The position numbers and the translations under genes are program-made. A stretch of 64,000 bases of DNA from an uncultured Clostridia bacterium (GTDB lineage Bacteria > Bacillota > Clostridia > TANB77 > CAG-508), in the NCBI GenBank assembly GCA_944389125.1, contig CALXLF010000012.1, positions 66,794-130,793 on the forward strand, in the 5' to 3' direction. The notes under the pieces are model-generated. The model had not been told where the DNA came from. It did no database searches and worked only from the letters and a program-made list of their open reading frames with translations. Of this stretch, positions 51,801 to 54,104 are shown in pieces. How positions within the stretch are numbered: position 1 is the first letter of the stretch; each line of letters opens with the position of its first letter.

Positions 51801-53751
51801 TCTTCAATATTACCATTATTCATTTCTTCTTGGCTTGTCCAATTTGTTCCATCCTTTTTTGTTACAAACCATACTTTAAAATTCATATAAAGATTAGAGG
51901 CTACTGTAAAGTATTTTCCATTGTTTAATCTTGGTTCATAACACTCACCATCGAATTTTACAAATTTGCTTGCTGCATGTAAATCATTGTCATTTGAATT
52001 TCCAATATTAAATCTTAAATTAACAGAAAGTTCTTTTCCTCTAACTGCTTTTCCATCTCCAGTTCCATAATCTGATTCCACAGTATCTTGTGCTCCAGGA
52101 ATAAAGAAATACAAATCTTGATTATAACTTCCATGAGAATATATTACATGTGATACTCTATCATAATCATCTGAAGTAATTATTTGCGAAGTAATTATTT
52201 GACCTGTAGATGATATAATTTTCATATTATTATCAGAAACTGTAAGATAATAATTTCTGTTTTCTATTGTACTTGCCTCAGTATCTGGTACAAATATTTG
52301 CATATATCCTACACTAAATGTTCCTATATTATCTGTATATATTTTGTTTTTAGAATTATCTCCAGGCCAACTTGACATATATTTAGGAAATATTCCATTA
52401 AAATCATAATTGTTGATTGTCACATGTAAAATATTTTCATTTTGACTTATTTGAATATTTCCTGAATTATATGTTGAATAGTCTGATTCTTTATATGTAG
52501 ACTTATCACTAATATATTTTCCTAATGGAAGACTTCTACTATGTATATATGCATCACCATTAGATGTAGTTGGGTAAAACAAATTTCTACCTTCTATCCC
52601 ACCAGAAAGATCTCCGGTTGACCAATCATTTATTCTATAATTCCAAAGTACTGGTGTTGCTTCATCTGTTATATCTTCCAATTCATTTGATTCAAATTTG
52701 CTCCTTTCTAATTTCAATTCAATATCAAAACTTATTTCTCCATTTGGATATTCTAATCCTTTTAAACCTTTTGATTTATTCTCATTATATAACTGAACTG
52801 TAAATCCATATGAATACATTCTTCCTTTTGTCTCACCTAGTCCATAATCTAAAGTTGTTTTTGTTTGCATTCCAGAAGTTCTTAACAATTGTATATTATA
52901 TTTTCCTTTTGCGCTAACTATTACTCTTTCTCCTATTGCTGATATTTTTTCATTTTCCTCATTTCCTAGCAAATTAAATGTAAATGTTGGTATAATTTCT
53001 GTTTCATTACCTGCACCTTGCACACTCAATACAAATACCAAAGTCTGTTTTCCGGGCACAGTTGTTACACTATTACTCATTGTATAACTTCCTGTTAAAA
53101 TTCTTCCATCTTCTGATACTTTTCCATTTTCCAACCACTGCATTGAGTCTAAATCCCAAGTCATTACATTTGCACAATTTTCTGGTAATTCTGCTTTTAC
53201 CTCTATTGTTCCACCTGTTAAACTATCTACTCCCGCTCCATCTTTTAGACCAAAAGTAAGCTCAGTTGTCCATGTTACTTGGTCAAATGAACGCACTATA
53301 TCATTATCAGGTGAACTATCATTACCTGGGTTATCATCAGAATCCCAAGGTCCTGTTCCTGTTACTCTTGATATTATCTCTGCTGAGCTGACAATTGCTT
53401 TATCTCCTATTGCATCTTGCTCTGCTAAAGGATCTACCCCAATATCAGCAGTGTCTCCACCTCTAACACTTTGTGCAATTGCTCCAAATCCATTTCTTAC
53501 GCTTTCCCTGAAATTTGCATTTATCATTACCAACGCAAATAAACCTACCAATACTATTATTGCTAGGATAAATACAATTTTTTTATTCTTTACTAGGGAT
53601 TTTCTATTTTTTTCGCCGCCTGTAAAGGTTACCTCTCTCTCTCTCTCTCTCTCTCTCTCTCTCTCTCTAGAGCAGAGCCAGTTTCAGGGTTAGAAATCTT
53701 ATTTAGCTTTTCGTCTTGTTTTCTCATTTTTCCGAACTTTGGTAATTTCAT
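42812..53751 (-). CDS. Giant multi-domain adhesin (about 3645 aa if in frame). Its 5' end is put out of frame by an (AG)18 tract.
   Basis: Domains in the track ORF 42812..53551:
- At least 8 CnaB-type repeats (VTKVWDDNNDKAGKRP-like).
- About 5 DUF11-type repeats (GEKITYTITVKNSGG...DTIPEGTTFV).
- At least 6 MucBP-like repeats (VIVKYVDIDTGEEI...VTYYYQ).
- One SdrD-B-like domain.
- A C-terminal TM anchor.

The true start is inferred as AGGAGG (53765..53760), 8 nt, then ATG at 53751. That start encodes MKLPKFGKMRK..., and the hydrophobic anchor KKIVFILAIIVLVGLFALVMINA lies downstream of the repeat in the other frame. The span is 10940 nt, i.e. 3n+2. Confidence 0.85.
53633..53668 (-). repeat. Perfect dinucleotide microsatellite: (CT)18 on plus, (AG)18 on the coding strand
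   Basis: Counted directly as 18 CT units from 53633 to 53668, flanked by AC and AG. Confidence 0.98.
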
Positions 53752-54104
53752 ATTTGCAGCCTCCTAAATACCTTTTTTCCTCTCTTATTTTTAATATTTA
53801 TTATATTATATATAACACATTAAAGTTCAAAATTAAACGGTAGTTTCTGCCATTTGAACCTAATTGGCAGATTTTACCTTACGGAAGCTATTTTCTACCT
53901 AAAATTTTACATTTCATTATCTTTTGTGTTAATTTTTATTAAACACCTCCCAAAGTTACTATTTTTCTTCTTACACAAAAAAATAAAAAAATACCGAACT
54001 TTTCGACAAAATTCGATATTTTAAATAAAATTTATATTTTCATTTTATAATTCCAAAAATCATGAAACTCCACAATTCCCTAAAAAAGAGTAACTTATTA
54101 AAAG

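Follow-up and report, generated by a model that had tools for sequence, protein, structure and literature searches.

A length-variable (AG)n tract in the leader of a giant adhesin gene of an uncultured Clostridia bacterium is a probable phase-variation switch

We analyzed a stretch of 64,000 nucleotides (nt; positions 66,794 to 130,793 of contig CALXLF010000012.1, assembly GCA_944389125.1), here referred to as the window and numbered from its first letter. The DNA stems from a low-GC bacterium of the class Clostridia (26.9% GC in the window). On the minus strand lies the gene of a giant adhesin, the body of which is separated from its start codon by a perfect (AG)18 tract (Table 1). The leader frame that begins at ATG 53751 encodes MKLPKFGKMRKQDEKLNKISNPETGSAL(ER)6, a product of 40 amino acids (aa). 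The adhesin frame is in +2 relative to this ATG, opens at 53683, and proceeds to a stop at 42812..42814; its 3623 open codons would be expected at the base composition of the window with a probability of only ~1e-157. The tract is located in the 5′ coding region, between the ATG and a putative export helix, and encodes Glu-Arg repeats whichever frame is used. Near the 5′ end of the adhesin frame, possible starts are limited to TTG 53551, TTG 53533, and ATG 53527, all of which fall within the hydrophobic helix (53578..53516) and none of which is preceded by a Shine-Dalgarno (SD) sequence. According to this arrangement of frames, the helix is reachable solely from ATG 53751 with the tract in frame, and the assembled window represents the OFF state.

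An earlier note, made from the letters of this DNA alone, had proposed the positions of the tract, the AGGAGG motif, ATG 53751, the TAA codon, and the opening of the adhesin frame; all of them were confirmed by re-reading the minus strand. It had further stated that a start at TTG 53551 would bisect the helix, and this codon indeed corresponds to the tenth helix residue. Its prediction that 17 or 20 AG units fuse the two frames, while 18 or 19 do not, was borne out when the region was rebuilt with 14 to 23 units: a continuous open reading frame (ORF) of ~3645 aa was obtained at 14, 17, 20, and 23 units only, and the leader ORF was 40 aa long at 18 units and 47 aa long at 16 units. A change in unit number toggled the gene between a full-length and a truncated frame, both in this simulation and among the 19 tract-bearing loci scored below. 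The (AG)18 tract is the sole dinucleotide run of at least five units found by direct scan of the window. Not even (AG)6 was present in any of 100 dinucleotide-preserving shuffles, and ~3e-17 runs of 18 units are expected per window for independent, identically distributed bases. A chance origin of the tract is excluded.

Table 1 Features of the adhesin locus in the window (window coordinates).
Feature	Position	Strand	Basis or remark
(AG)18 tract, putative switch	53633..53668	minus	Tandem Repeats Finder and direct scan; 100% matches; (CT)18 on the plus strand
SD sequence AGGAGG	53760..53765	minus	8 nt 5′ of ATG 53751
Leader coding segment MKLPKFGKMRKQDEKLNKISNPETGSAL from ATG 53751	53669..53751	minus	homologous leaders M[KR]..PE[NT]xGA[VL] in alignment
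TAA closing the 40-aa leader ORF in the assembled state	53629..53631	minus	translation
Hydrophobic helix IVFILAIIVLVGLFALVMINA, putative signal-peptide h-region or membrane anchor	53516..53578	minus	sequence
Open adhesin frame, 3623 codons and stop	42812..53683	minus	ORF listing and translation
C-terminal hydrophobic helix and basic tail, ..VETGINRN-VYLIITTYLLMIGLLILLYLY-EQYQKERR..	42893..42955	minus	sequence
Stem-loop in the 5′ untranslated region, TCTGCCA ... TGGCAGA	53846..53871	minus	7 base pairs retained in the window, L101, and L107, with a single change (C-G to U-G)
Promoter-like TTAACA-17-TAAAAT	53904..53932	minus	10/12 consensus matches; ~150 nt 5′ of the ATG
Hairpin resembling an intrinsic terminator, at the end of the upstream ABC-ATPase gene	54088..54110	minus	9-pair stem, then T-run

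The assignment of ATG 53751 as the start codon, which had also been claimed in the earlier note, is corroborated by two loci of a sister species (L107 and L108), in which the protein encoded upstream, an ATP-binding cassette (ABC) protein, is 87% identical. Both loci share the AAAAAAGGTATTTAGGAGGCTGCA..ATGAAATT.CC.AA context of ATG 53751, and there this context opens an intact, tract-less adhesin of 2233 aa (MKFPKNKNNRKVISYAVRSFIAIILIAYLLINA..). Since the sister species starts a tract-less adhesin from the same SD/ATG context, ATG 53751 is most likely the real start. This comparison supports it far better than the resemblance of KLPKFGKMR to the KxYKxGKxW motif, which had been put forward for the same purpose. 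A signal peptide of the KxYKxGKxW type (TIGR03715 and its Pfam equivalent) was rejected, as the fused N-terminus had no NCBIfam or Pfam match even at E ≤ 10.

Contigs of the same lineage were identified through a 100%-identical database entry (P0281) of the upstream ABC protein, which was located once the homology search had supplied the start choice of the database. Exact look-ups of the 3579-aa gene call of the window, the 40-aa mini-ORF, and the ABC ORF read from its first TTG had no database match, and two scans of metagenome contigs from JGI for the tract flanks gave no match either. Three contigs were obtained via P0281 (L101, L102, and L103). L101 (ENA ERZ24773400) possesses (AG)16. Upstream of the tract, it agrees with the window over 2220 nt with 0 mismatches and over 3000 nt with 1, and its gene call is the 47-aa mini-ORF predicted for 16 units. 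Tract length is polymorphic at constant flanks in this lineage, with (AG)18 in the window and (AG)16 in L101, and likewise among 20 assemblies of “Candidatus (Ca.) Merdicola” described below. L102 differs from the window at 7 of 5058 nt and terminates within the tract, and the L103 contig stops before it; such breaks inside or just before the tract fit mixed tract lengths or a low coverage that split the assembly graph. Separately, a comparison of window positions 53588-53632 with L101:5446-5490 revealed 2 substitutions in the 45 nt just 3′ of the tract versus 1 in 3000 nt 5′ of it. Divergence or recombination may be faster in the adhesin body than in the DNA around it.

Because short-read assembly is error-prone at dinucleotide runs, we considered that the units had been miscounted, and that the gene truly has 17 or 20 units, is ON, and carries the tract as a stable Glu-Arg linker. 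The break of the L102 contig inside the tract and the in-frame alleles with short runs in relatives agree with this explanation. Nevertheless, it is very unlikely, since independent assemblies differ in length at identical flanks, since a stable linker would not span 8 to 15 units in one lineage of ≥90% identity, and since the tract of L005 (OZ006973), (AG)14, is out of frame too. As the latter belongs to a circular HiFi metagenome-assembled genome (MAG), its OFF state is unlikely to be a short-read artefact. Moreover, a miscount would account neither for the pattern across the family nor for the HiFi case; in the window, it might affect the exact number 18, and would alter the current state only and not the nature of the locus.

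Length variation was also found in the Ca. Merdicola lineage. A protein cluster at 90% identity with 52 members (P0043, Ca. Merdicola sp.) comprises (HT)3, (HT)4, and (HT)5 forms with identical flanks, which correspond to 9, 12, and 15 AC units. The cluster also contains forms of 348/349 aa, which start after the tract because out-of-frame alleles are called from the first Met 3′ of it. Among the listed members, the short forms occurred on ~178 contigs and the long forms on ~50. At the DNA level, 20 independent assemblies of one Ca. Merdicola locus (L081-L100), always downstream of dnaE, were 100% identical in the flanks of the tract (75 nt on its 5′ side and 40 nt on its 3′ side). The assemblies with the short gene call had 8 (one assembly), 10 (three), 11 (four), or 14 (two) AC units, and those with the long call had 12 units (ten assemblies). 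In-frame counts at this locus are 9, 12, and 15 only, and 12 was the sole one of these among the 20 assemblies. Other clusters (P0094, P0084/P0272, and P0005) behave alike.

The Ca. Merdicola adhesin is additionally split by a fixed +1 frameshift into ORFs of ~349/382 aa and ~1939 aa (L081-L100, e.g. L091:2290-2350). Frame 0 closes with ..GAFRRRRI and a stop, and frame 1 resumes with ..EYSCYNSGTVNMEQ, which represents the conserved YNSG motif of the family. This frameshift is identical in 20/20 assemblies and no repeat is present at the site; the gene could be a pseudogene, encode a two-part protein, or depend on programmed frameshifting. Because of this extra fixed frameshift, the length series of Ca. 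Merdicola demonstrates mutability of the tract and not selection.

The distribution of such tracts in the wider family was assessed with the hypothetical fused N-terminus of the window adhesin as query. The queries of 330 aa and 1000 aa returned proteins of up to ~1.7 times the query length, and full-length close orthologs of this adhesin were not among them. With the fused N-terminus, 120 proteins of 35-69% identity were retrieved, nearly all from gut metagenome assemblies, and their N-termini sorted into four classes. Class 1 consists of ordinary short signal peptides (MKKIKISLIIIIMFLF..VKA). Class 2 comprises long basic leaders with a repeat at the same position as in the window, composed of M[KR]...PE[NT]xGA[VL], (HT)n or (RE)n, a basic stretch, and the helix; Thr-His is translated (AC)n and Arg-Glu is translated (AG)n. 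The class 3 leaders are similar to those of class 2 but have no repeat (..SSALERTGFLKNGKK.. and ..GDVHTVSLNKK..), and class 4 contains calls that start in or just 5′ of the helix (MILLGVFALIF.. and MGILVGIILLGLFALIF..) and parallel the TTG 53551 call of the window. The tract-less leaders with ..ALER.. or ..AVHT.. suggest that both tract types grew from proto-repeats of two or three units at the same site, which would represent convergent evolution within the adhesin family. A further difference was seen in the leader of P0006, which reads MKSQNNKKSASSKALALSPTHTHTH where P0266 and P0094 read MKSQNNKKKVRQQSLGAVHTHTHTH (L111:1001-1080). It looks as if the A-run of the leader had slipped by −1 and a different AC count made up for it, which would point either to a second site of mutability or to an error in homopolymer sequencing in that assembly.

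Eighty loci were taken from GTDB representatives, all of them MAGs of uncultured Clostridia from human, chicken, rabbit, sheep, and deer guts, and several paralogs per MAG were common. For 19 tract-bearing loci the frame was scored, with the adhesin frame anchored on the TGTGPWD codons of a conserved motif and the start placed at the leader ATG with its SD sequence. OFF alleles with AG tracts were L005, L012, and L025 with (AG)14, L026 with (AG)9, L042 with (AG)12, and the window with (AG)18; those with AC tracts were L007, L010, L014, L016, and L019 with (AC)19, L009 with (AC)16, and L030 with (AC)11. ON alleles were L015 and L021 with (AC)15, together with two interrupted or short tracts, L018 (HTPTHTPTHT) and L031 with (AG)5. 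The OFF assignment of L047, with (AC)14 located 664 nt from the motif, is doubtful and concerns a possible orphan leader. This leader, MQKLESLEAVHTHTHTH (L047:2325-2390), lies ~260 nt upstream of an adhesin with its own start and helix, and could be what is left of an earlier switch, or else an upstream ORF with a regulatory role. Considering the long tracts of the species representatives, 13 leaders were out of frame and 2 in frame, and the leader ORF always ended just 3′ of the tract. One MAG (BRZ_NT bin20) has six tract-bearing paralogs (L007, L009, L010, L014, L016, and L019) and another (BRZ_MF bin81) has four (L012, L025, L026, and L042). In the former, 5/6 paralogs were assembled with exactly (AC)19, which could be due to gene conversion among these paralogs or an effect of the assembler.

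Dinucleotide tracts of at least 6 units were rare in the 471 kb of DNA around the 80 homologous genes, where 16 were counted. Fourteen of these were situated on the coding strand within 450 nt upstream of the conserved motif, a zone that makes up 7.6% of this DNA (binomial P = 2.4e-14). All 14 leader tracts are AC or AG on the coding strand and encode hydrophilic dipeptides; GT or CT occurred in 0/14. The tract is presumably translated within a cytoplasmic n-region, as such a bias is expected in that case. These patterns are difficult to reconcile with a neutral microsatellite in a gene undergoing loss, in which the frameshift would be a pseudogenising lesion and the variation in length would have no regulatory role. 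Most of the observed alleles are OFF and the Ca. Merdicola locus has its second, fixed frameshift, as would be anticipated during decay. Still, we regard neutral decay as highly improbable, because tracts of two different units recur at one leader position across many paralogs and species and are nearly absent elsewhere in the DNA fetched, because the bias in strand and unit implies a translated tract, because intact ON alleles exist, and because 3623 codons have stayed open in a genome of 27% GC, for which the chance expectation is given above. Since the 10.7-kb frame is intact, purifying selection probably acts on the adhesin gene, which must be expressed from time to time.

The ON alleles also demonstrate how the leader and the adhesin are joined. 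In L111 (P0266), the leader ATG opens a single ORF of 2731 aa that crosses (AC)11 and encodes an adhesin with the same domain set as that of the window (SdrD_B, MucBP, DUF11, DUF7927, and Cna_B), and L110 (P0113) has an in-frame (AG)10 allele. The proposal of the earlier note that the tract uncouples the start codon from the adhesin agrees with these alleles, in which the frame opened by the leader ATG spans the tract and continues as the full adhesin. A different role of a repeat-dependent short ORF is known from the Pil1 pilus of Streptococcus gallolyticus, where GCAGA repeats set the length of a leader peptide and thereby govern a ribosome-dependent destabilisation of a transcription terminator (PMC3894217). 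The present locus is similar in that a repeat alters a short leader ORF upstream of the gene for an adhesive surface structure in a Gram-positive gut-associated organism. If an analogous attenuation operated here, the length of the mini-ORF would control a terminator downstream, and the tract-dependent short ORF in front of a Gram-positive adhesin gene, together with the precedent (PMC3894217), speaks for such a mechanism. However, no terminator-like site was found 3′ of the leader, between it and the adhesin body, and the adhesin frame has no start codon, SD sequence, or complete signal of its own. In addition, the leader is fused to the adhesin in the ON alleles, whereas the Pil1 leader is never fused to the pilin; the ON state here is a translational fusion. 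Attenuation is therefore extremely unlikely. Recoding, i.e. ribosomal frameshifting or transcriptional slippage that yields a constitutive low level of full-length protein at any DNA length, deserves little more credence. Long repeats can promote slippage of RNA polymerase, but this has been documented mainly at homopolymers, and the length variation observed in the DNA suffices to explain the data.

Taken together, the locus is very probably a simple-sequence contingency locus, at which slippage in (AG)n switches the giant adhesin on and off from ATG 53751. Translation of the adhesin would begin at this ATG, and the cytoplasmic n-region ahead of the export or anchor helix would be made up of the first ~28 codons, (AG)n, and a short basic segment. 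Replication slippage would add or remove units of 2 nt. One length in three (n = 14, 17, 20 ...) would fuse the start codon with the 3623-codon adhesin frame and give the ON state. At the remaining two-thirds of lengths, translation would stop at or just past the tract and leave the adhesin body without a start codon, SD sequence, or complete signal (OFF). For that reason, the surface protein is presumably absent in the OFF state. With the tract in the n-region, dipeptides of varying number and kind could be tolerated, namely Glu-Arg in the window and Thr-His in relatives. The likely outcome would be a stochastic mix of cells with and without the adhesin, and where a relative carries 4 to 6 such genes, their ON and OFF states could occur in combination. 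We infer replication slippage as the cause, and likewise the reversibility and the rate of switching within a clone and a selective benefit such as immune, phage, or niche bet-hedging. The earlier note had taken the assembled gene to be OFF, as was confirmed here, and had described the tract as a slipped-strand switch, in line with the difference of 18 versus 16 units in the same lineage and the range of 8 to 15 units at identical flanks in a related lineage. It had also named the comparison of tract length among relatives as a check, and the length does vary; that relatives might lack both the tract and the mini-ORF, which would have spoken against a switch, was contradicted.

Several points weigh against this interpretation. 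The two alleles observed in the lineage of the window (16 and 18 units) are both OFF, and the sequences retrieved contained no ON allele of this particular gene. The lengths come from assemblies, and an assembler could miscount a dinucleotide run of 36 nt by one unit. The variation at the Ca. Merdicola locus, with its fixed downstream frameshift, could represent neutral slippage in a decaying gene. Lastly, the ON fraction of 2/15 is lower than the neutral expectation of one-third, a difference that is not significant (P = 0.08), and hence the ratio of ON to OFF alleles says nothing on selection for either state.

Beyond the single locus, we consider it reasonably likely that uncultured low-GC gut Clostridia, among them Ca. 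Merdicola and relatives from humans, poultry, and ruminants, possess a multi-locus “phasome” of up to 6 giant adhesin paralogs per genome. In each paralog, a tract of (AC)n or (AG)n would have arisen independently at one and the same site of the export leader, through expansion of a proto-repeat (..ALER.. or ..AVHT..).

The protein encoded by the window is a multidomain Gram-positive adhesin with domain arrays above the Pfam thresholds. From approximately residue 1090 on, it contains eight Cna_B (400 bits), six MucBP (171 bits), and five DUF11 (112 bits) domains, as well as SdrD_B (65 bits) and DUF7927 (49 bits). The first ~1000 residues (50684-53515, minus strand) had no Pfam or NCBIfam match, and a PDB sequence search with the N-terminal 906 aa gave no match. 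An alignment showed that this region carries an invariant motif, TGTGPWDxxDxPGNDSSxxNxIVRSFDQVTW, which is common to >100 proteins. The ~1000-residue N-terminal region may represent an undescribed tip or ligand-binding domain. The C-terminus has a hydrophobic helix and then a basic tail (Table 1), but the preceding sequence is ..SVETG.. and an LPXTG motif is absent; no NCBIfam or Pfam anchor model matched. The C-terminus looks like a sorting or anchor signal, possibly with a variant sorting motif.

The terminator-like hairpin is the sole site of its kind within 53300..54300, and because it ends the upstream ABC-ATPase gene, the adhesin most likely forms a separate transcription unit. Promoter-like sites are no commoner here than in shuffled sequence, and the TTAACA-17-TAAAAT element is a consensus match only. 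The block comprising this element and the stem-loop (53846-53960, minus strand) is conserved in species with an 87-89% identical ABC protein, despite their differing downstream adhesins. Neither the leader nor the 5′ untranslated region had an Rfam match at the gathering thresholds. Neighboring genes encode a protein with a Spo0A_C domain, PcrA, a nonribosomal peptide synthetase, and two further large surface proteins with SdrD_B and DUF11 domains. The ORFs of the latter (1478 aa and 1858 aa) are arranged back to back with a distance of 3 nt (31528-41544, minus strand). At the end of each, a hydrophobic helix precedes ..KRFYR. Repeat tracts are absent from both, and the 1478-aa ORF has no obvious signal peptide at its listed start.

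Similar switches are known from Gram-negative bacteria. In Neisseria, the opa genes contain a CTCTT pentamer repeat in the region that encodes the signal peptide, and form a multigene family of which the copies switch independently. The adhesins described here share with opa the repeat in the coding region of an export leader and the organization as a multigene family. Unlike the tracts found here, the opa repeat is a pentamer encoding the hydrophobic core of the leader, and its products are small beta-barrels in a Gram-negative host. Closest of all is sabA of Helicobacter pylori (as well as oipA, sabB, and hopZ), in which a dinucleotide tract (CT) near the 5′ end of the adhesin gene is in frame at one length in three. 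The sabA frame is open at 7 and 10 units, unit counts vary among strains and re-isolates, and many sequenced alleles, including those of the reference genomes, are out of frame (PMC2715451). The H. pylori system belongs to a Gram-negative pathogen with porin-like proteins of ~70 kDa and tracts of 6 to 10 units. In contrast, the loci of this study belong to uncultured gut Clostridia of the Gram-positive type, encode Cna_B/MucBP/DUF11 proteins of 2200 to 3650 aa, contain tracts of up to 19 units, and use two units (AC and AG) at the same leader position in different paralogs.

Within the class Clostridia, the cwpV switch of Clostridioides difficile is an invertible element. CwpV resembles the adhesin of the window in being a phase-variable large cell-surface protein of this class (PMC4737114, PMC11868660). 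The other C. difficile switches covered by a 2025 review are promoter inversions by site-specific recombination, and none is described as repeat slippage in a coding sequence (PMC11868660). In the literature searched on Clostridia, surface proteins of Firmicutes, MucBP adhesins, and gut metagenomes, no repeat-driven switch was found; it contained only inverton and epigenetic mechanisms for gut commensals and inversion-based switches for C. difficile. The adhesin family, its switch, and the host group thus appear to be undescribed in the literature searched, while the mechanism itself is textbook knowledge.

Among gut commensals, the phase variation mapped to date consists almost wholly of DNA inversions and methylation switches. 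Here, adhesins of 2000 to 3650 aa from uncultured gut Clostridia display the full comparative signature of repeat-driven contingency loci, in several copies per genome. Gene callers systematically mis-start or split such adhesin genes and assemblies break at the tracts, and the presence or absence of an adhesin gene is uninformative on whether the adhesin is made. Tract lengths, on the other hand, would offer a culture-free readout of selection on adhesion, for example by immunoglobulin A (IgA), phages, or the mucus niche, in metagenomic time series. If the proposed phasome is real, it would provide these commensals with a combinatorial, stochastic variation of their surface, a strategy documented mainly in Gram-negative pathogens, and it would be legible from metagenomes as ON and OFF allele frequencies in each sample.

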